A stretch of DNA of 64,000 nt, from positions 82,407 to 146,406 of IMG/VR virus record IMGVR_UViG_3300012269_000002; one strand, given 5' to 3'. How positions within the stretch are numbered: the first letter of the stretch is position 1; each line of letters opens with the position of its first letter. Of the stretch, positions 3,713 through 37,478 are shown piece after piece. Both the position numbers and the translations under genes were made by a program. Source of the stretch: a virus. Taxonomy: Duplodnaviria > Heunggongvirae > Uroviricota > Caudoviricetes. The notes beneath the pieces were generated by a model. It saw nothing but the letters and a program-made list of their open reading frames with translations, ran no database searches and was not told the origin of the DNA.

Positions 3713-4735
3713 ATGGGAAAAGTATATAAATTTTCAAAAGTGGAGTTAAATGATATTGTTAAAATGTATGTTAATGAATTTCAATCAACAAATAATATCG
3801 CTAAAAAATATAATGTTGATACTGGTGTTATAATAAAAAGATTAAGGGATAATAAAATTAAAATTCCTAAGCGCTCTGCATATTCCAAAAAATATTGGTT
3901 AGAAAGGGGAATGGATGAAGATTTAATTGACCCTCATATAAAAACACTTAGACCCGTTAATCCCGAATACTGGTTTAAGTTAGGTTATTCAGAAAGTGAG
4001 GCTATTTTACAAATAGAAGGTCAAAAATTGGTTTCAGAAAGGGGCTGTATAGCTAGGTATGGAGAAATTGAGGGGAAGCGTATTTGGAGTGGAAGGGAAA
4101 TAAAAAGGAGTGAAAATAGTAAAAAGGGTAGTGCTAATTTACAATATTGGTTAAATAAAGGTTATTCTGAGGATGAAGCTAAAATAAAGCGTAGTGAAAG
4201 ACAATCTACATTCTCAAAAGAAATTTGTGTTAAAAAATATGGTGAGGTTGAAGGTTTAAAAATTTTCACCGAAAGACAGAATAAGTGGTCTAAATCTTTA
4301 ACCAATAATGGAAATCTTAAAATAGGGTATTCTAAGATATCACAAGATTTGTTTTATAAATTATTAAAACAATATAAAATAGAAGATAGGGATAAAATTA
4401 ATTTTGCCACACATAATAAAGAGTTTAAATTAAATAAATCTGAATCAGAAGGTGGGATTTGGATGTATGATTTTACTGATATCAAAAATAAAAAGATAAT
4501 CGAATATAATGGTGACCAATATCATGGAAACCCTAAAAAATATTTAGCAGAAGATTATCCACACCCTTTTAGAAAAACAATCACCGCACAAGAAATGTGG
4601 GATAAAGATAAACGTAAGTTAGATATTGCCAATAAAGAAGGTTTTGATGTGTTAGTTATTTGGGATTCAGAATATCGTTGGGGGAATAAAGAAAAAGTAA
4701 TAGATAAATGTAAAAAATTTTTAAAATATGGTTAA
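3713..4735 (+). CDS. Free-standing homing endonuclease (helix-turn-helix/NUMOD-like repeats plus Vsr/DUF559-like nuclease) located between the split intein halves
   Basis: Repeated YW..GYSE.EA helix motifs. C-terminal IIEYNGDQYHGNPKKY ... VLVIWDSEY matches the Vsr-like nuclease core shared with ORF 1356. It lies in a different frame from both flanking Rad50 pieces. Confidence 0.5.
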   Translation: MGKVYKFSKVELNDIVKMYVNEFQSTNNIAKKYNVDTGVIIKRLRDNKIKIPKRSAYSKKYWLERGMDEDLIDPHIKTLRPVNPEYWFKLGYSESEAILQIEGQKLVSERGCIARYGEIEGKRIWSGREIKRSENSKKGSANLQYWLNKGYSEDEAKIKRSERQSTFSKEICVKKYGEVEGLKIFTERQNKWSKSLTNNGNLKIGYSKISQDLFYKLLKQYKIEDRDKINFATHNKEFKLNKSESEGGIWMYDFTDIKNKKIIEYNGDQYHGNPKKYLAEDYPHPFRKTITAQEMWDKDKRKLDIANKEGFDVLVIWDSEYRWGNKEKVIDKCKKFLKYG

Positions 4736-6968
4736 AGAAATTGAGATAGGTAAATTAAATGAAATTTACAAAAAATATGGTGATTTAGGTTTTGAGGTGG
4801 ACACACCATATGGCTTTCATGATATTACATGGTGTGGTATAACCGAAGAAAATGCCGAGGTATATAGATGTGAACTAGAAAATGGTTTGTATGTTGAAGG
4901 TGCTGATTATCATAGATTAAAAAAAGAAGATGGGGAATTTGAAGTTTTAAAGAATATTGAAATCGGAACACCTATTCAAGTTAGGAATGGTATTTCAAAT
5001 GTTAAGTCAATTAAATTATTAAATGAGCGAGACACTTTATATGATATTCAAGTAGATAAAGTTCATCAGTATTATTCAAATGATATAGTATCACATAACA
5101 CGACCTTAACAATTGATGCAATTAAATTCTTATTTTTTGGTACAACAACCAAAACCGATAAGAATGAACAGGTATTCAATCAATTTAGTGAAAACAATGA
5201 CCTTATTCTTAGGGCCATGATTCAAATTGAAGGTGATGACGAGATAATTATAGAGCGTTTTTTAAAGAGGAAGGCTAAACGTAAGGGTGGTTGGACCATA
5301 GAGAATAAATTAAACTACTACATAATCTTACCAGATGGTGAAGAAGAGTTAATGAACGATGAAGATGCCACTAAAACGACAAATTTAATAAAAGAAACCG
5401 TTGGTACCGAAAGTGATTTTGATTTAGTGGTCCTAGCCACATCTAGAAATCTTGACACCCTTGTTGATTCTACATCTGGAGAAAGTGGTAAACTATTAAC
5501 TAGATTTATAGGTCTAGAGGTGATATCGTTGAAAGAAACCGCTGCCCGTAAGATGTATTCAACATTTTCAAAAACTATGAAGTCAAACATTTATGATGTT
5601 GAAACTTTAGACGAAGAAATTAGTGAGCATCAAGGTAAAATAGACGAGTTAAATAGTCAAAGAAAAATTTTAGATATTGAGCTAACTGACCAAAAGGAAA
5701 TTCAAGTTAAATTAAACGAAGAAAAAATTACCCTTATAAGTTCAAAGGAAAAAATAGATGCAAAAATATTAACACTAAACCCATCTAAATTGAATCAAGA
5801 GATTAGCACCATAACTCAAACGGGTGTTGGGTATAAAAATGAGATAGCTGAGTTAAAGGTCAAAATAAAAAAAATCGGTGATATAAATTTTGATGAGGAT
5901 AGAGATTTTGAACTAAGCAAAGAAAAAACATCCGTAAGTAGTGATATAGCTGTTAAAGAAGCTGAAATAATTAGATTAGACAAAGTAATCGATGATTTAA
6001 TAGCTGGTGGTATATGTCAGGCTTGTAACAGAGCCTTAGAGGACGTTGATAACACCGAACACATAAACACTCATAAATTACAAATAGGTGCATTAGGTGA
6101 AGCCTTAATGTCGTTAAGGGTTAAATTATCATCTATCAATATTGAAATTGAGAAATTAAGTGTTGCAAAGGTTAAAATTAATGAAAAAAATAAATTAGAA
6201 TTAAGAAAGGATAGGGTAGAAGTTGAAATTGGGTCATTAAGAAATTCACTTAAGACTAAAAATGACGACTTGAATAAGTACAATGAAAATGTAAGTGGTA
6301 TTGATAAAAATGCTAAACTTGATAGTGAAATAAGTATAGTAGACACTAAACTTATTGTTTGTGAACGTGAAAAAGAAAGCATCAATAATAAAATACAGTC
6401 AAATGGTATCCTAAAGGAAAGTAACAATAAGGATATTACCTTAAAAACGGATTTAATAAAAACCATAAATAAAGAGTTGGAGGTTGATAAAGTCTTTAGG
6501 GTGTATATTGATATGGTCGGTAAAAAGGGTATTAGTAAATTAGTACTTAGGTCGGTACTACCTATAATAAATAGTGAGATACAAAGACTACTTGACGATA
6601 TCACCGATTTTGATGTTGAAGTTTTTGTTGACGATAAGAATGAAGTTAGATATTTATTAATAAAGGATGGGGTTGAGAAACCATTAAAATCTGGTAGTGG
6701 CTTTGAATTGACTGCCGCAAGTATTGCGTTAAGATGTGTACTGGGTAAAATGTCAAATCTACCAAAACCTAACTTCATTGCATTTGATGAGGTCCTAGGT
6801 AGGGTTGCACCAGAGAATATTTCAGCCATGAGACCATTATTCGAAAGAATAACCGATATGTTCGATATAGTCTTCTTTATAACTCAGAATGATTTAGTTA
6901 AGGATTGGGCGAATCAAATTGTGACGGTAATAAAGGATAATAATATCTCTAAAATAAAAACTTTATAA
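4728..6968 (+). CDS. Split-intein C piece (about 124 aa, ends ...LYDIQVDKVHQYYSNDIVSHN) fused to the Rad50/SbcC-like ATPase body (coiled coil, CxxC zinc hook, signature and Walker B motifs)
   Basis: Intein blocks F/G are present (YDIxV...H.Y.SNDIVSHN followed by T). The extein has AIKFLFFG after the P-loop, a long coiled coil with CQAC at its centre, a C-terminal SGSGFELTAASIALR (signature-like) and FIAFDEV (Walker B/D-loop). Confidence 0.6.
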   Translation: MVKEIEIGKLNEIYKKYGDLGFEVDTPYGFHDITWCGITEENAEVYRCELENGLYVEGADYHRLKKEDGEFEVLKNIEIGTPIQVRNGISNVKSIKLLNERDTLYDIQVDKVHQYYSNDIVSHNTTLTIDAIKFLFFGTTTKTDKNEQVFNQFSENNDLILRAMIQIEGDDEIIIERFLKRKAKRKGGWTIENKLNYYIILPDGEEELMNDEDATKTTNLIKETVGTESDFDLVVLATSRNLDTLVDSTSGESGKLLTRFIGLEVISLKETAARKMYSTFSKTMKSNIYDVETLDEEISEHQGKIDELNSQRKILDIELTDQKEIQVKLNEEKITLISSKEKIDAKILTLNPSKLNQEISTITQTGVGYKNEIAELKVKIKKIGDINFDEDRDFELSKEKTSVSSDIAVKEAEIIRLDKVIDDLIAGGICQACNRALEDVDNTEHINTHKLQIGALGEALMSLRVKLSSINIEIEKLSVAKVKINEKNKLELRKDRVEVEIGSLRNSLKTKNDDLNKYNENVSGIDKNAKLDSEISIVDTKLIVCEREKESINNKIQSNGILKESNNKDITLKTDLIKTINKELEVDKVFRVYIDMVGKKGISKLVLRSVLPIINSEIQRLLDDITDFDVEVFVDDKNEVRYLLIKDGVEKPLKSGSGFELTAASIALRCVLGKMSNLPKPNFIAFDEVLGRVAPENISAMRPLFERITDMFDIVFFITQNDLVKDWANQIVTVIKDNNISKIKTL

Positions 6969-20522: not shown

Positions 20523-21977
20523 ATGAAACTAATAGATGCAATGAGAACTAATGATGCGTTCACAGAAAATGGTATGACAACAAATTCAACATCCTTGAAT
20601 TTATGTGTTGATTTATTCTTTAAAATCGGAGCCTTAAGGGGTAAGGGCAAAAGAGATAAGATAAATGCATTTTCAAAGGCGTTCGGTGAAAACCCACTAT
20701 TGGCCATGAAAATATTATTTTGGGCTAGGGATATTAGAGGTGGTGCTGGTGAAAGAGAAACCTTTAGGGAAATTGTTGTTTATTTATCAAATAACCACCC
20801 AGATGTGTTAGGTAAGAATTTAAACTTATTTTCCGAGTTTGGTAGGTGGGACGATTTACTTGTTCTAATAGGTACTAAATTAGAAAATGAAGTTTTGGTT
20901 ATTATAAAATCAGCCCTTGATAGGGGTGATGGTTTATGTTCCAAATGGCTTCCAAGGGGCAATACAAAAAACAGGGAAAGAAAATTATGGGCTAAAGCTA
21001 TAAGAAACTACTTAGGTCTTTCACCAAAAGAATATAGAACCTTATTAGTTGGATTATCAAACACTGTTGAGCAATTAATGTGCGCTAAGAAATTTGATGC
21101 AATCACATATTCTCACGTACCATCTAAGGCTATGTCCGATTATATGAAATCATTTTCGAGAAATGATACCCAAAGATTTGGTTCTTATTTGCAATCAGTC
21201 GAAAAGGGTGAAGCTACGATTAATGCTGGTGCGGTTTATCCATATGATATAATAAAAAGTTTAAAACAAGGTAACTCAGATGGTGCTAACGCACAATGGG
21301 GTGCACTACCTAACTATTTAGAAGGTAATGGCGAACGTTTACTCCCACTTGTAGATGTATCTGGTTCAATGACCTGTCCAGCTGGTGGTAGTAAATCGGT
21401 TACTTGTATGGACGTTGCAATATCTCTTGGGTTATATATTTCAGAGCGTAATGTTGGTGCATTTAAAGATGCGTTTCTAACATTCACGAGTCAACCTAAA
21501 TTAGAGGTCCTTAAAGGTAGTTTAAATGATAGGTTCACTCAATTGAGTAGAGCTGACTGGGGTGGGAGCACTAATATACAAGCCGCATTTGAAACAATTT
21601 TAACTAAAGCCAAGTCTAGCGATGTGCTACAATCCGATATGCCTACCATGTTATTAATTTTAAGTGATATGCAGTTTGACTTTGCAACTGGTAATAATGG
21701 TTGGGGGGTTTCTCATCCAGTCTGGAACCCAAGTGCTCAACAAATGGTTGAAAAAATGTATGCCGATTCTGGTTATAAAATGCCAAAACTTGTTTACTGG
21801 AACTTAAATTCAAGAAATGATAACAGCCCCGTTTCTTTTGATAAACAAGGTACGGCACTTGTTAGCGGATTTAGTGTTTCATTGTTAAAGAACCTTTTGG
21901 GTGGTAAGGATATGACACCATTATCTATGATGATGGATATTGTTAACTCTGATAGGTACGATAGTATTACAATATAA
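20523..21977 (+). CDS. DUF2828/TROVE-like N-terminal domain plus C-terminal von Willebrand factor A (vWA, MIDAS DxSGSM) protein
   Basis: The N-terminus (TENGMTTNSTSLNLCVDLFFKIGALRG) resembles DUF2828 family starts. VDVSGSMTCPAGGSKSVTCMDVAISLG is a vWA MIDAS motif. The architecture parallels Ro60-like TROVE+vWA proteins. Confidence 0.45.
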   Translation: MKLIDAMRTNDAFTENGMTTNSTSLNLCVDLFFKIGALRGKGKRDKINAFSKAFGENPLLAMKILFWARDIRGGAGERETFREIVVYLSNNHPDVLGKNLNLFSEFGRWDDLLVLIGTKLENEVLVIIKSALDRGDGLCSKWLPRGNTKNRERKLWAKAIRNYLGLSPKEYRTLLVGLSNTVEQLMCAKKFDAITYSHVPSKAMSDYMKSFSRNDTQRFGSYLQSVEKGEATINAGAVYPYDIIKSLKQGNSDGANAQWGALPNYLEGNGERLLPLVDVSGSMTCPAGGSKSVTCMDVAISLGLYISERNVGAFKDAFLTFTSQPKLEVLKGSLNDRFTQLSRADWGGSTNIQAAFETILTKAKSSDVLQSDMPTMLLILSDMQFDFATGNNGWGVSHPVWNPSAQQMVEKMYADSGYKMPKLVYWNLNSRNDNSPVSFDKQGTALVSGFSVSLLKNLLGGKDMTPLSMMMDIVNSDRYDSITI

Positions 21978-24831: not shown

Positions 24832-25515
24832 GTGGGTTACATATATATGTTAATAGATAAGAGAAATGGTAAAAAATATGTTGGAAAACATAATGATAAA
24901 AAAAAAGATTATTGGTCATCTGGATTAGTCCCTAATAGAATAGCTAAAGTTCATGGTGCAATTATATTTGATAGGGTTATACTTGAAGATGATATAAATG
25001 ATAATAATTTAAATGATAAGGAAATTTATTATATTAAATTAGAAAACTCGTTTAATGATGGTTATAATTCGACTAAAGGTGGCGAGGGCGGTAATCATTG
25101 GGTTTATGATAAAACAGATGAAGAATTAAAAGAAATTAGATTAAAACAGTCTAAAAAATTAAAAGGTAGGGTCTTTAGTAAAGAAACAAAGAAAAAAATG
25201 AGCGACTCTGCCAAGGCTAAGTTTTTTACTAAGGAGCATAGGGAAAATATAGGTAAAGGTACTAAAAATAGAGGTGGGTTTCCACATAGTAATGAGACTA
25301 AAGAAAAAATAGCTAAATCTATGAGTGGTCGTAAGTCGCCAGAACATTCTAAATTTATGGTTGAGAACAATCCAAAAGCTCAGAAAGTTTCTATAAATGG
25401 TGTTGAATATGATACCATAAAAGAAGCTACTAAAAAACTTAACATAAATAGAAGTACTGTAAAATATAGATTAAATAACCATAAATTTAAAAAATGGTTT
25501 AAAATTAAAAAATAA
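24832..25515 (+). CDS. GIY-YIG homing endonuclease (N-terminal GIY-YIG, NUMOD3-like repeats, C-terminal HTH)
   Basis: GYIYMLIDKRNGKKYVGK is the GIY-x10-YIG spacing. Repeats SKETKKKMSDSAKAKF and SNETKEKIAKSMSGRK are NUMOD3-like. The C-terminus has a NINRSTVKYRLNN HTH. Confidence 0.7.
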   Translation: MGYIYMLIDKRNGKKYVGKHNDKKKDYWSSGLVPNRIAKVHGAIIFDRVILEDDINDNNLNDKEIYYIKLENSFNDGYNSTKGGEGGNHWVYDKTDEELKEIRLKQSKKLKGRVFSKETKKKMSDSAKAKFFTKEHRENIGKGTKNRGGFPHSNETKEKIAKSMSGRKSPEHSKFMVENNPKAQKVSINGVEYDTIKEATKKLNINRSTVKYRLNNHKFKKWFKIKK

Positions 25516-26626: not shown

Positions 26627-26987
26627 GGGCGTTTTACGGAATTGATTATGGATATTCGTAATTAGTAAGGAAGTGGAGTTAGATTGGAAGCTCCTAAAAT
26701 CACTATCAAACACTTTTTAAATGGCAACGAGTTTGACATTGACAAAAATTTCCTAGATACCGCCACCTTGGGTGTTGGTATGGGAGAGGTAGCATTAGCC
26801 TAATTTAATGTTGATGGTGATAAATCACCAAATAATAGTAATCTATTAATCATGGTAATCTATGAGTGGGACCAAAACCACTATAAAAGTAAGGAAGAAT
26901 TTCGGATAGTTTGATAAATTATGACCTAAACTTCTAGAAATCTTTTGAAGAGTTTGTAAGACATGGGTTCGACTCCCATAACGTCCA
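26627..26987 (+). ncRNA. ssrA: tmRNA (ssrA)-like gene, about 361 nt
   Basis: The 5' gggcgtt pairs with the 3' aacgtcc (7 bp, one G-U) next to a tRNA-like T-arm (atggg ttcgact cccat) and discriminator A. The 5' region GGGCGUUUUACGGAAUUGAUUAUGGAUAUUCG resembles the canonical tmRNA start GGGGCUGAUUCUGGAUUCGAC. An internal frame ends ...GMGEVALA then TAA (26801-26803). A terminator follows at 26994-27020. Confidence 0.5.
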
Positions 26988-26993
26988 CTTTTA

Positions 26994-28529: not shown

Positions 28530-28847
28530 ATGTTTATTTATAAAAATAAAGTGTTTCTATTTATTTTTTTTTTAATATTAGTATTTTTATATAAACAATA
28601 TATGATGTTTAAAAAGCATAAGGTTACATTTCTTAACGAATCTTGGAAGATAGTAAAAACTGATGTTTCAGTTAAAGCAATACCAAGAATACATGAAATA
28701 GTGTATTTAGTGGATGAACTAAAATACTATAGGGTTGTGAATGTTGTACATAATATTGATAAAAACCACACTATTTATGTCATAATTGAAGAATATGCTG
28801 ATGATTATGCATTAATTGAAAAAAAAAGTAAAAAAAACTTGACATAA
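28530..28847 (+). CDS. hypothetical membrane-anchored protein
   Basis: N-terminal TM helix; ORF. Confidence 0.3.
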   Translation: MFIYKNKVFLFIFFLILVFLYKQYMMFKKHKVTFLNESWKIVKTDVSVKAIPRIHEIVYLVDELKYYRVVNVVHNIDKNHTIYVIIEEYADDYALIEKKSKKNLT

Positions 28848-28869
28848 AGAATAACATTTACTATATTTG
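28838..28869 (+). promoter_or_regulatory. promoter (ttgaca ... tatatttg) upstream of the split tRNA-fMet
   Basis: cttgacat at 28838-28845 and tatatttg at 28862-28869. Confidence 0.45.
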
Positions 28870-28941
28870 TACTATATATAATAAACAAAACTTTTAAACC
28901 CACCATAGTTAATAGGTGAAAAACCTAATTAAAAGACACAT

Positions 28942-29752
28942 TGCGGGGTGGAGCAGTGGCCAGCTCGCTGGGCTCACACAGTTTTAAAAGACTGAAAAAT
29001 ATTCGAACTAAAATTAATTTTTAGGGATTAGGTTCGTTTATATCTTTTCATACTATTTATTAGTGTGGATAAATATAATAAGAAAGATTTAGAAAGATTA
29101 ATTTTAGAGCAGAATAAAAGTTATACTGCTATTGGTAAATTGTATAACGTTTCTGGAAACGCTATTAAAAAAGCGGCAAAGAAATTGGAAATTTCCTTAC
29201 CAACACGAAGAAAAGTTAATAAAAATGAAAATTTTAGTCACGTTGGCTATAGAAAAGATAGTTTAATTAATAAAATATCTGACATTAATTTTATTTTTAT
29301 TATAAATAATTCTAAAGGGTGGAAGGAAATTGGTGAAAAATTAGGATACAAAAGTAAAGTTTCTTCAGATGTGAAGGATTCTATTGAAAGACGATGCTCA
29401 ATGTTAGGTGTGGAGCTAAAATTAATCAAATCAATAGGTATATCTTCTTTAACAAAAGATGAACTCTTTAACAAACGTAAAAATTGGCAATCCGCAAGGA
29501 GTGCCATCCAAAAACACGCTAGGAGTGTGTTTTTTGAATCTAACCCTTCACCAAGTTGTGCAAATTGTGGTTATTTAAATCATGTTGAAGTGGCTCACAT
29601 AAAAGCCGTTTCAGAATTTGATGGATTTACAACAATAGGAGAAATAAATTTATTATCAAACCTAATGGGATTATGCCCTAACCATCATTGGGAGTATGAT
29701 AATAAATAATTAATATAACCCAGAGGTCGGAGGTTCGAATCCTCCCCCCGCT
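28942..29752 (+). tRNA. initiator tRNA-Met (anticodon CAT) interrupted in the anticodon loop by a 738-bp insertion carrying an HNH endonuclease gene (exon 1 28942-28976, exon 2 29715-29752)
   Basis: The 5' half carries the acceptor, a D-arm with an A11:U24 pair, and the anticodon stem CTGGG plus loop start CTCA. The 3' half at 29715 continues the loop (TAA), then CCCAG, AGGTC, T-arm GGAGG TTCGAAT CCTCC and acceptor CCCCGCT plus A. Joined, the loop reads CTCATAA. Three G-C pairs close the anticodon stem and position 1:72 is unpaired; both are initiator hallmarks. Confidence 0.6.
29065..29709 (+). CDS. HNH homing endonuclease (N-terminal HTH) encoded inside the tRNA-fMet insertion
   Basis: C-terminal HNH motifs: CANCGYLNHVEVAHIKAV and LMGLCPNHHWEYD. 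The N-terminus has an HTH (TAIGKLYNVSGNAIKKAAKKL). The ORF fills almost the whole insertion. Confidence 0.7.
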   Translation: MDKYNKKDLERLILEQNKSYTAIGKLYNVSGNAIKKAAKKLEISLPTRRKVNKNENFSHVGYRKDSLINKISDINFIFIINNSKGWKEIGEKLGYKSKVSSDVKDSIERRCSMLGVELKLIKSIGISSLTKDELFNKRKNWQSARSAIQKHARSVFFESNPSPSCANCGYLNHVEVAHIKAVSEFDGFTTIGEINLLSNLMGLCPNHHWEYDNK

Positions 29753-29828
29753 AAACAACCGAAGTTAATCTACTTGCACGTAGTGGTTGTTGCACACCTA
29801 AATTAGGTGACTAAAAGATTAACGCATG

Positions 29829-29880
29829 CGTCACAGATAATATCTTATTAATTATAATTAATAAGATATTATCTGTGACG
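29829..29880. repeat. 52-bp perfect palindrome (cgtcacagataatatcttattaatta | taattaataagatattatctgtgacg)
   Basis: Direct reading. The right arm is the exact reverse complement of the left, with no spacer. A 10-bp palindrome acgcatgcgt lies on its left edge and a T-run on the right. It sits 77 nt downstream of the tRNA-fMet 3' end. Confidence 0.85.
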
Positions 29881-29948
29881 TTTTAGGTTTAACGTATTTT
29901 TATCTTGCCTCCAAAGACTCATCATATTCATGGTGGGTCTTTTTTTTG

Positions 29949-36365: not shown

Positions 36366-37478
36366 ATGAGAGTTAAATTTAACTTACAGGTTCCAAAAGA
36401 CATTATAAAAATCAAGGATATATTTGTAAGCAATGGTTATAAACTATTTGTTGTCGGTGGTGCCGTTCGTGACTCATTACTTAAAAAGTCAATAAAAGAT
36501 TGGGATTTAGCTACCGATGCTAAACCAGATATAGTCGAGAATATGATGAAGACCGCTGGTCTTAGAACATTAGGGACTGGAAAAAGCTTTGGGGTCATAA
36601 ATGTATTCACCGATTCAGATGAATATGAAATCGCTACATTTAGGTCTGATTTAGGTTCGGATGGCCGCAGACCAAATTCTGTTGAATTCACGAATATTGA
36701 TACCGATGTTATGCGTAGGGATTTAACAATCAATGCATTATTTTATGATATCGAAACTGGTGAGGTTGTTGACCTTGTTGGCGGTATTGATGACTTGAAG
36801 AACCGAGTTGTTAGGACCGTTGGTTCAGCCAATGATAGATTCGGTGAAGATAGACTTAGAATACTTAGAGCAATTAGGTTCGCTGGTAGATTTAATTCAG
36901 ATTTGGATGCTGATGCTGAAAAATCACTCGCAAATGATGCCAGCTTAGAGGGAATATCATCTGAGAGGATTAGAGACGAGTTTTTAAAGGGTATTAAGAC
37001 CGCTAAATCGATTAAATACTTCCTAGGGCTACTAAATCAATACAATCTATTAGATTGGATATTTAAGGATATACAGAATGTTGATACTGACTTTCAAGAG
37101 GAAAGGGACCCAACTGTTCTATTGGCATACATGTTAAGAAATAATGACCCCAAACAATTGAACGGTAAGTTGAATAAATTGACGTACTCCATCAATGAGA
37201 TTAGGGGAATTGTTTTCTTAGTAAATCTAACAATGTTAAATGTTAACAATGTATATGAACTTAAGAAGATGCAGAATAATTCTGGTGTTAATGACGAACA
37301 GATTAGAAAATTCTCAAACTTAGTTGGTTTAAACACTGAATTATTTGAGTCATTTATAAAATTCGAATTATCAATTGGTGGTGCCGAGGTTCAAAAGTTA
37401 GGTATTGAAGCTGGTCCAGAAATGGGTAGAATGATTAAAAAATTAGAATTACAGAATTTTTTAAAGTATTTGAATTAA
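36366..37478 (+). CDS. cca: tRNA nucleotidyltransferase (CCA-adding enzyme), polymerase beta superfamily
   Basis: Head-domain motifs are FVVGGAVRDSLL, DWDLAT and RRDLTINALFYD. No tRNA gene in the window encodes CCA except tRNA-Ser(TGA). Confidence 0.75.
   Translation: MRVKFNLQVPKDIIKIKDIFVSNGYKLFVVGGAVRDSLLKKSIKDWDLATDAKPDIVENMMKTAGLRTLGTGKSFGVINVFTDSDEYEIATFRSDLGSDGRRPNSVEFTNIDTDVMRRDLTINALFYDIETGEVVDLVGGIDDLKNRVVRTVGSANDRFGEDRLRILRAIRFAGRFNSDLDADAEKSLANDASLEGISSERIRDEFLKGIKTAKSIKYFLGLLNQYNLLDWIFKDIQNVDTDFQEERDPTVLLAYMLRNNDPKQLNGKLNKLTYSINEIRGIVFLVNLTMLNVNNVYELKKMQNNSGVNDEQIRKFSNLVGLNTELFESFIKFELSIGGAEVQKLGIEAGPEMGRMIKKLELQNFLKYLN

Follow-up and report, generated by a model that had tools for sequence, protein, structure and literature searches.

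Analysis of a 64,000-nucleotide (nt) stretch of viral DNA (IMG/VR record IMGVR_UViG_3300012269_000002, positions 82,407 to 146,406; Caudoviricetes), referred to here as the window, revealed an initiator transfer RNA (tRNA) gene that is interrupted within its anticodon by a gene for an HNH homing endonuclease. The insert is a member of a large and so far undescribed family of mobile HNH homing endonucleases of uncultivated, mostly large, phages. We are confident that it is a homing-endonuclease cassette and not a group I intron. Taken as a whole, the data are best read as a mobile intron-like homing-endonuclease element whose interrupted tRNA is restored by a route other than group I splicing, a reading that we rate at an even chance.

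With introns allowed, ARAGORN predicted a single tRNA-Met(cat) with a 739-nt intron at positions 28941 to 29754, and the spliced construct was recognized as an intact 75-nt tRNA-Met. All features of the locus lie on the plus strand. Exon 1 (28942 to 28975) provides tRNA positions 1 to 34 (T1 to C34), comprising the 5' strand of the acceptor stem, the D arm, the 5' strand of the anticodon stem, and loop residues C32, U33, and C34. Exon 2 (29715 to 29753) provides positions 35 to 73, comprising A35, U36, A37, and A38, the 3' strand of the anticodon stem, the variable loop, the T arm, the 3' strand of the acceptor stem, and the discriminator A73; CCA is not encoded. The intron-like HNH cassette (28976 to 29714; 739 bp) lies between them. 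The joined exons read GGCTC/ATAACC across the junction (…TCAGGCCC/ATAACCTGA…). The G+C content is 66% in the exons, 28% in the insert, and 31% in the window. The joined tRNA shows the anticodon CAU, a U1 × U72 mismatch, A11:U24, and G29-G31:C39-C41. An earlier note on this stretch had proposed an initiator tRNA split within its anticodon; the split was confirmed by ARAGORN with introns allowed and by its recurrence in about 20 lineages, and all four bacterial initiator features expected after joining can be read directly from the window sequence. The note also took this gene to be the sole initiator tRNA copy, in agreement with the finding that the 64 kb contain no other initiator-type tRNA: the only other CAU tRNA in the window (42346 to 42421) has a paired 1:72 and C11:G24 and is of the elongator or Ile2 type. 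Its observation that no G precedes the 3' junction also holds, the base there being T. The exon coordinates that it gave (28942 to 28976 and 29715 to 29752) were corrected because they imply a one-base overlap and an 8-nt loop, and the insert measures 739 bp rather than 738 bp.

The open reading frame (ORF) of the insert (29065 to 29709; 214 amino acids [aa]; GTG start) encodes a protein with an N-terminal helix-turn-helix-like region and a C-terminal CxxC...HVEVAH...N...CPNHH motif, which is kept in all homologues. It fills almost the whole insert, with 89 nt of noncoding DNA on the 5' side and 5 nt past the stop codon. The protein matches Pfam HNH_2 above the cutoff (1.4e-5) as well as HNH families in PHROGs, in keeping with an HNH (beta-beta-alpha-metal) motif that has zinc-binding cysteines. 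Searches returned 488 homologues at an E value of ≤1e-20, of which more than 120 are 56 to 71% identical and about 218 to 220 aa long, and an identical protein is encoded on JGI metagenome contigs as long as 161 kb. Among cultured phages, neither a full-length homologue of the protein nor DNA similarity to the locus was found, and solved structures gave no informative match. The homologues in 80 viral loci lie directly upstream of a tRNA-Met(CAU) gene (often overlapping it), directly downstream of it, or inside it, and at more than 60 loci a tRNA-Met gene contains or adjoins the element. A description of such an HNH element in a tRNA anticodon was not found in full-text literature searches.

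Using a DNA pattern for the 5' intron element and look-ups of the encoding contigs, the set of split tRNA genes was enlarged to about 20 lineages, all with the identical C34/A35 junction. The lineages stem from gut metagenomes (of pigs and others) as well as from additional metagenome assemblies of JGI, ENA, and Logan, and several of the contigs are 170 to 390 kb long. A chance assembly is ruled out, since about 20 independent phage lineages share this split gene and its insert. The position of the junction is ambiguous by one A in the window alone and was deduced from comparison of 18 lineages. The first intron base is A in 12 lineages, T in 5, and C in 1; the second is T in 17 lineages and C in the window; exon 2 begins with ATAA in 18/18. 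Since the first two intron bases vary and exon 2 begins with ATAA throughout, exon 2 must supply A35 and U36, which places the junction between C34 and A35. Only with a junction after C34 is CAU obtained in all lineages. The last intron base is T in 16/18 lineages, A in 2/18, and G in none. The stop codon of the ORF coincides with U36-A37-A38 of the anticodon loop in most lineages; the window's own stop codon lies 6 nt earlier.

A tRNA-Met was called by ARAGORN for 18 of the 20 spliced constructs. In the alignment of the 18 lineages, standard pairs occupy all cells of acceptor pairs 2 to 7 and of the D, anticodon, and T stems; slid alignments, used as a control, pair at 45 to 58%. Thirteen tRNA pairs are changed on both sides, eight of them in the acceptor and anticodon stems, the strands of which are located in different exons. 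Position 1:72 is unpaired in 12/18 lineages and A11:U24 is present in 17/18; the three G-C pairs 29-31:39-41 are found in the window and in locus L216 only. Exon positions 32 to 34 show 1 change in 54 cells, and the adjoining intron positions +1 and +2 show 7 in 36 (Fisher P = 0.006). The anticodon stems are identical between close relatives of the element despite differing distal parts of the exons, and those of deeper element lineages show compensated differences only. These results indicate purifying selection on the part of the anticodon loop next to the junction. An exact search with the joined exon sequence matched unrelated GC-rich contigs only, and a search for an intronless allele in close relatives of the phage, via the neighboring deoxynucleoside monophosphate (dNMP) kinase gene, returned only distant relatives without tRNAs. 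At locus L251, a second, uninterrupted initiator-like tRNA-Met with A11:U24 (2230 to 2303) lies directly downstream of the split one; therefore, the split copy there may be redundant. A manA RNA motif was seen below threshold (E values of 0.002 to 0.018) just downstream of the split tRNA at L226 (2302 to 2623) and L251 (2314 to 2524).

Comparison of the inserts revealed conserved RNA structures at both ends. A hairpin, H1 (28979 to 28994), begins 3 nt past the 5' junction and consists of a CAGUU/GACUG stem with a UUAAAA loop, followed by GAAA. In 15 lineages it has 4 to 5 bp and a KYAAAA loop and is 93% paired; one pair is G-C in 10 lineages and A-U in 5, and U.G wobbles occur in addition. The wobbles indicate that H1 acts as RNA on this strand. 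A two-part long-range duplex, P-A, is formed by a 5' strand at 29000 to 29015 (29000 to 29004 and 29008 to 29015; UAUUC ... CUAAAAUU) and a 3' strand within codons 13 to 18 of the ORF (29100 to 29107 and 29112 to 29116; AAUUUUAG-AGCA-GAAUA). P-A is 93% paired, compared with 32 to 47% in slid controls, and pair 3:40 is U-A in 10 lineages, C-G in 3, and A-U in 2, and pair 15:27 is A-U in 11 and U-A in 3. The duplex encloses the HNH start codon and a conserved TATTTAT box (29054 to 29060), which is usually located 15 to 16 nt past GGTTCGTT and 4 nt ahead of the start codon. The box forms part of a start codon hairpin and is a candidate for an internal -10 element. An invariant inverted repeat at 29004 to 29036 ("hairpin 2"; CGAACU at 29004 to 29009 and GGUUCG at 29031 to 29036) is followed by a U run, shows no covariation, and is mutually exclusive with P-A. 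Its reading as an intrinsic terminator was rejected because a terminator scan made no call and covariation favors the competing P-A. Its GGTTCG is T-arm-like, and the repeat might function as a DNA operator or belong to an internal promoter; speculatively, the TTCGAAC/GGTTCG repeat, which resembles the GGTTCGA of tRNA T arms, could serve as the operator for the HNH enzyme itself.

At the other end of the insert, a 3' domain (29648 to 29707) lies in the end of the ORF and ends 7 nt short of the 3' junction. Its helix x (29648 to 29657) pairs with y (29698 to 29707) and encloses a hairpin (29672 to 29678 with 29690 to 29696). Pairing in the x/y helix reaches 84%, and six of its pairs have changes on both strands; the helix carries UUA/UAA in the group of the window and UCC/GGA in the main group. 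Synonymous codon identity rises from about 0.45 to 0.5 in the body of the ORF to 0.67 to 0.77 at its two ends (~20 codons each) and within one internal block. The synonymously constrained regions contain the invariant blocks GUUAGGU and UGCCCUAACCA, and the codons TGC CCT AAC are invariable in intronic copies, compared with TGT CCT AAT in free-standing homologues. RNAalifold analysis of 15 whole precursors recovered the cloverleaf across the insert, H1, and the two long-range helices. A covariance model of the 5' element, run on the window and the 80 loci with HNH relatives, matched only the four split loci among them. Two further pairings were considered and set aside: a long-range GUUAGG/CCUAAC pair, both sides of which are invariant and offer no covariation to judge it by, and a kissing interaction of the H1 loop (UUAAAA) with the AU-rich 3' end, which is not conserved across lineages.

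Loci in which the element has moved or the tRNA has decayed were informative. The introns of L001 and L218 are about 9% apart, and their flanks and the distal parts of their exons are different. The same element thus occurs in different genomic backgrounds within a conserved target gene, as is characteristic of a mobile homing endonuclease. On the 305-kb contig of L242, the HNH ORF is intact (62% identical to that of the window) and the tRNA exons have decayed, with mismatches in the anticodon stem, a destroyed T loop, an unpaired acceptor, and no ARAGORN call. H1 and the CGAAC arm have decayed there too, and the TATTTAT box is retained. L003/L004 have an aberrant tRNA (G8 and a 49:65 mismatch; no call) and a broken H1; in L245, which is closest to them by structure of the 5' region, the tRNA is intact and H1 is intact and extended. 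From L242 and from L003/L004 versus L245, we conclude that H1 tracks the tRNA and that the TATTTAT box tracks the endonuclease gene.

One promoter-terminator unit spans both tRNA halves. A sigma-70-like sequence upstream of the 5' half (28839 to 28867; TTGACA-17-TATATT) matches the consensus at 11 of 12 positions and probably functions as the promoter, and two terminator-like hairpins with T runs (29831 to 29878 and 29913 to 29942) close the unit. The window also encodes a T4 Rnl1-type RNA ligase (48680 to 49810; plus strand; PF09511, 7.6e-12; phrog_562, 7e-46; PDB entry 2C5U, 1.7e-15). In T4, Rnl1 serves to reseal anticodon loops that have been broken, and the window homologue, which is not adjacent to the split gene, is a candidate for joining the tRNA halves. 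It belongs to a translation and RNA repair toolkit (36366 to 37478, 45095 to 46250, 48680 to 49810, and 59363 to 61760) that also includes a CCA-adding enzyme/poly(A) polymerase head domain, a PTH2 peptidyl-tRNA hydrolase, a tRNA-binding domain protein, a second, intein-interrupted RNA-ligase-like gene, and an ATP-dependent DNA ligase. A Pfam scan of window ORFs of 110 aa or more, covering 64 kb of a genome of at least 161 kb, found no domain of the EndA-family splicing endonucleases. The 266-aa ORF just upstream of the ligase gene (47195 to 47995) has, by eye, a P-loop-like N terminus and the HxTx motifs HHMTI and HITIA, which suggested a kinase joined to a 2H phosphoesterase; its candidacy as a healing enzyme obtained no confirmation from Pfam, PDB, or PHROGs (weak PHROG matches only), and it was not used as evidence.

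According to the favored reading, the bipartite HNH enzyme would, judging from the behavior of its family, cut uninterrupted tRNA-Met/fMet genes of coinfecting phages, and repair of the cut gene would copy the cassette in (homing). Transcription from the tRNA promoter would run through both halves to the downstream terminators. In this read-through transcript, the P-A structure would bury the start region of the HNH gene; if P-A hides the start in this way, the enzyme would be made only from a transcript begun at the internal promoter-like box. An internal start of the endonuclease message resembles the regulation of T4 intron endonucleases. The tRNA body is predicted to fold across the insert, with H1 and the 3' domain marking the two cuts. 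Excision at both junctions would be protein dependent, would not follow the group I route, and would be guided by H1 and the 3' domain, after which an RNA ligase, possibly the Rnl1 homologue at 48680 to 49810, would rejoin the base-paired halves within the anticodon loop. We consider the chances evenly balanced that the tRNA is restored by some route at the RNA level; restoration specifically via Rnl1 is a plausible route that we rate as less likely than not. Slightly below even stands the proposal of a new intron class in bacterial viruses, i.e., an ORF-filled insert at 34/35 that is removed without group I chemistry, either by a new ribozyme or by a protein that cuts, with resealing by Rnl1.

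Several observations weigh against restoration of the tRNA. Distances between HNH proteins agree only weakly with those between exons (Mantel r = 0.35; P = 0.002). In one pig gut lineage, the element is nearly invariant and its flanks show many differences between contigs; near-identity of the element amid variable flanks points to recent sweeps. Repeated homing into functional alleles could also yield intact, covarying exons. C33 replaces the universal U33 in L226 to L235, the lineage of protein P0021, which is the most abundant one seen (45 member sequences on 30 contigs from pig and other gut samples). Two lineages keep an intact HNH gene next to a dead tRNA, and therefore the enzyme is maintained independently of the tRNA. 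As for the RNA structures, H1 contains one strongly covarying pair only, control of endonuclease expression would suffice to explain P-A and the start codon hairpins, and the 3' helix is made of conserved codons, so that its pairing may be partly inherited rather than selected. A co-occurrence scan of the element and Rnl1, made with a single sequence, reached only close Rnl1 relatives on other contigs. Finally, excision and ligation are inferred steps. Repeated homing nevertheless explains less readily the conservation of positions 32 to 34 and the compensated differences in the anticodon stems.

The most serious rival, to which we give a substantial minority of our confidence, is a selfish insertion in which the HNH gene drove itself into the anticodon loop of a dispensable tRNA gene and is never removed from the RNA; the tRNA would be dead, re-homing into fresh functional alleles, with the parts near the junction traveling along, would keep its halves looking intact, and the intron folds would only regulate endonuclease expression and transcript stability. 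This fits the lack of a ribozyme by Rfam, the many relatives that are typical free-standing endonuclease genes beside tRNA-Met genes, and the richness of the window in other homing-endonuclease genes and inteins. The signature of recent sweeps and the weak congruence of exon and HNH trees point in the same direction, as do the decayed tRNAs next to an intact HNH gene in L242 and L003, the U33C change in one lineage, and the second initiator-like tRNA right downstream at L251. P-A likewise matches what is understood of T4 introns, in which the start codon of the homing endonuclease is hidden in read-through transcripts. However, the loop residues 32 to 34, which travel with the element, are conserved while the adjoining intron base +1 varies, and the anticodon stems of element lineages differ by compensated steps only. 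A dead tRNA would also have to be reconciled with merely 2 of about 20 lineages being decayed despite 28 to 40% divergence of the HNH protein, with exons that stay at 66% G+C in an AT-rich genome, with the retention of a near-consensus tRNA promoter, and with H1, which acts at the RNA level, lies upstream of the internal box, is present in split genes only, and is lost along with the tRNA. The alternative offered in the earlier note, a nonintron endonuclease insertion that kills the tRNA, stands as far as the homing-endonuclease cassette is concerned; inactivation is doubtful because the halves covary in 18 lineages, the loop is under purifying selection, and the hairpin is kept only beside an intact tRNA. 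Removal of the insert by a new class of ribozyme, with end helices that overlap the ORF and either self-splice or cleave themselves twice, the halves being ligated in the latter case, seems unlikely. The covarying H1, P-A, and 3' domain adjoin both junctions, three ORF regions are under synonymous constraint (including the GUUAGGU and UGCCCUAACCA blocks), and intronic copies have TGC CCT AAC where free-standing ones have TGT CCT AAT. The spread among unrelated phages without conserved neighboring genes favors self-sufficiency, and heal-and-seal enzymes suit 2',3'-cyclic phosphate and 5'-OH ends, as is understood for T4 Pnkp/Rnl1. Yet none of the 4,227 Rfam families matches, the conserved noncoding RNA is short, a regulatory explanation of P-A is simpler, the 3' junction has no evident conserved nucleotides beyond codons, and the sequence gives no ground to infer catalysis. 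Hammerhead, hatchet, pistol, HDV, and bulge-helix-bulge motifs were judged incompatible by eye.

A canonical or divergent group I intron with a core overlapping the ORF, as read in the earlier note, is the least probable explanation considered. Group I introns of bacterial tRNAs classically occupy the anticodon loop. A group I 5' splice site comes after a U, and a U (U36) could in principle precede the 5' junction in 12/18 lineages; such a junction, however, leads to non-CAU anticodons in the other 6. Known group I introns of bacterial tRNA-fMet are located at 33/34, and some tRNA group I introns carry HNH genes (PMC13011429). No match to Intron_gpI or another ribozyme was obtained in 28850 to 29850 when the 4,227 Rfam families were searched (cmscan, E ≤ 10), the output being noise only, so that the check with Rfam group I models across the insert did not bear out this reading. 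Searches for ribozymes in 12 related loci (gathering score) and in 3 loci (E ≤ 1) returned only tRNAs, transfer-messenger RNA (tmRNA), and weak unrelated matches. The terminal G of group I introns is absent in 18/18 lineages, the junction lies after C34, the noncoding DNA amounts to just 89 nt on the 5' side and 5 nt on the 3' side, and inspection found no internal guide sequence complementary to the exon end GGCUC. A GAGC guide pairing with the exon end GCUC was rejected for want of covariation. The idea of the same note that functional RNA lies within the ORF fared better, as synonymous constraint is seen at both ends and the covarying helices use coding bases. It is also very improbable that the tRNA gene is split in the strict sense, with a 5' half (to the U run) and a 3' half (on the HNH mRNA, from the internal promoter) made separately and joined in trans. 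The U run after the invariant CGAACU/GGUUCG repeat and the conserved promoter-like box 15 to 16 nt further are compatible with it. Yet "hairpin 2" has a loop of about 21 nt and is not called a terminator, covariation backs the competing P-A, which needs a continuous transcript, inspection found no complementary leader and trailer of the Nanoarchaeum type, and precise trimming and a ligase would still be required.

Other features of the window and of related loci were recorded. Intein splicing domains are present in two genes (4728 to 6968, SMC/SbcC-like ATPase; 59363 to 60340, RNA-ligase-like) and add to the load of selfish elements of the phage. Some 2 kb upstream of the split tRNA lies a tmRNA gene (26627 to 26990; Rfam, 58 bits; ARAGORN tag peptide GNEFDIDKNFLDTATLGVGMGEVALA), and the related locus L019 has a tmRNA as well (5061 to 5457). 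In the tRNA cluster at 39529 to 44273, ARAGORN reported 2-nt "anticodons" at 39613 to 39684, 41138 to 41218, 43555 to 43647, and 43715 to 43789, and a 58-nt tRNA match by Rfam (41792 to 41849) was missed by ARAGORN; these odd genes could be further interrupted or noncanonical tRNAs. Free-standing homing-endonuclease genes lie between tRNAs of the cluster (HNH, 40003 to 40488, phrog_10822; NUMOD3-bearing, 42551 to 43222, phrog_314), and a GIY-YIG I-TevI-like gene is located at 24832 to 25515. The protein encoded at 20523 to 21977 (DUF2828/DUF7788/VWA) presumably belongs to the TROVE/Ro-like RNA-binding family; the partners of bacterial Ro proteins are tRNA-like Y RNAs. At L001, the HNH ORF contains an in-frame TGA (~1553 to 1555) where the close relative L218 has CGA, which indicates either a recent pseudogene or a TGA-recoding phage. 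A tRNA with a CUA anticodon (amber suppressor-like) is also present at L001 and L003. L018 carries a long-arm tRNA (1829 to 2724) with the anticodon loop ACTTTAA, called with an 809-nt insert; its UUA anticodon would read the UAA stop codon. This insert, in which no group I core was detected by Rfam, comprises a different, 170-aa HNH ORF and about 250 nt of noncoding DNA. Immediately upstream of the HNH gene, L018 (~2870 to 2905) and L022 (~2945 to 2975) carry orphan fragments of the 5' part of an initiator-like tRNA; at L018, a complete tRNA-Met follows downstream of that gene. These fragments look like remnants of imprecise insertion or recombination.

To our knowledge, every tRNA intron so far described from bacteria splices itself (group I, rarely group II). 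The cyanobacterial tRNA-fMet intron encoding I-Ssp6803I likewise places a mobile endonuclease gene in the anticodon loop of an initiator tRNA, and I-Ssp6803I targets tRNA-fMet genes, as proposed here. That intron is located at 33/34 after U33 (PMC13011429) and has a full group I core, a terminal G, and a PD-(D/E)XK nuclease. In contrast, the window insert is located at 34/35 in a phage, lacks a core and a terminal G, is filled by its ORF, and encodes an HNH enzyme. A second comparison is with free-standing endonucleases of phage tRNA clusters, such as T4 SegB and the T5 HNH nucleases F-TflI/II/IV, which also live among tRNA genes and cut tRNA gene DNA of related phages. SegB is mentioned in PMC13096335. 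Genes of this type sit between other genes and split nothing, as do many relatives of the window HNH gene, whereas the sublineage of the window is fixed inside the anticodon and has its own conserved RNA structures.

Archaeal bulge-helix-bulge introns are ribozyme free, occur in stable RNA genes, and may contain little beyond an endonuclease ORF. Their removal relies on a protein endonuclease and an RNA ligase, and they would be the closest working analogue if the favored explanation holds. However, no bulge-helix-bulge motif, with its two 3-nt bulges on either side of a 4-bp helix, can be drawn for the window insert: inspection of the 18 lineages found no complementarity across the two junctions, and the RNAalifold consensus shows no such motif. 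The tRNA is of the bacterial type (A11:U24 and the 1:72 mismatch), and the candidate ligase is of the Rnl1 type, not RtcB as in the archaeal comparison. Because the tRNA is of the bacterial type and the phage encodes a tmRNA, the host is taken to be bacterial. In phage Aeh1, the homing-endonuclease gene mobE is reportedly inserted into nrdA without an intron or intein, and the gene still works. There, two polypeptides reassemble noncovalently; a tRNA broken in its anticodon, in contrast, cannot decode unless it is religated. We know of phage RNA ligase and healing enzymes so far only as counterdefense repair. According to a 2014 review, every phage intron then known was in a protein-coding gene (PMC3984707). 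Unclassified "enigmatic" tRNA introns have been reported in Lak megaphages (Devoto et al., 10.1101/356790). Like the element described here, they are insertions in phage tRNAs without an Rfam intron class or a known splicing route, and they are highly conserved across cohorts (10.1101/356790). They differ in affecting other isoacceptors (Phe, Gly, Thr, and Tyr), and one is said to contain a possible tRNA; the text of the preprint does not report an endonuclease ORF, an endonuclease family, or RNA structures.

A very abundant element of gut, rumen, and other environments interrupts a phage initiator tRNA at one fixed position of the anticodon. Because it is not group I, is always found at the same site, and has conserved RNA folds at both ends, the insert may represent a novel type of tRNA intron. 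Should the tRNA be restored, viruses that infect bacteria have an unrecognized splicing route, and ligase and healing enzymes could be splicing enzymes. If the Rnl1 route is true, a system regarded as repair would gain a role in splicing, and enzymatic splicing of tRNA would be known for the first time from the bacterial world. Without restoration, the element would offer a clear natural example of a homing endonuclease whose spread destroys a gene for translation, together with a series of intact and decayed stages. Either way, the uncharacterized endonuclease family is specific for the anticodon region, and annotation pipelines miss such tRNAs.

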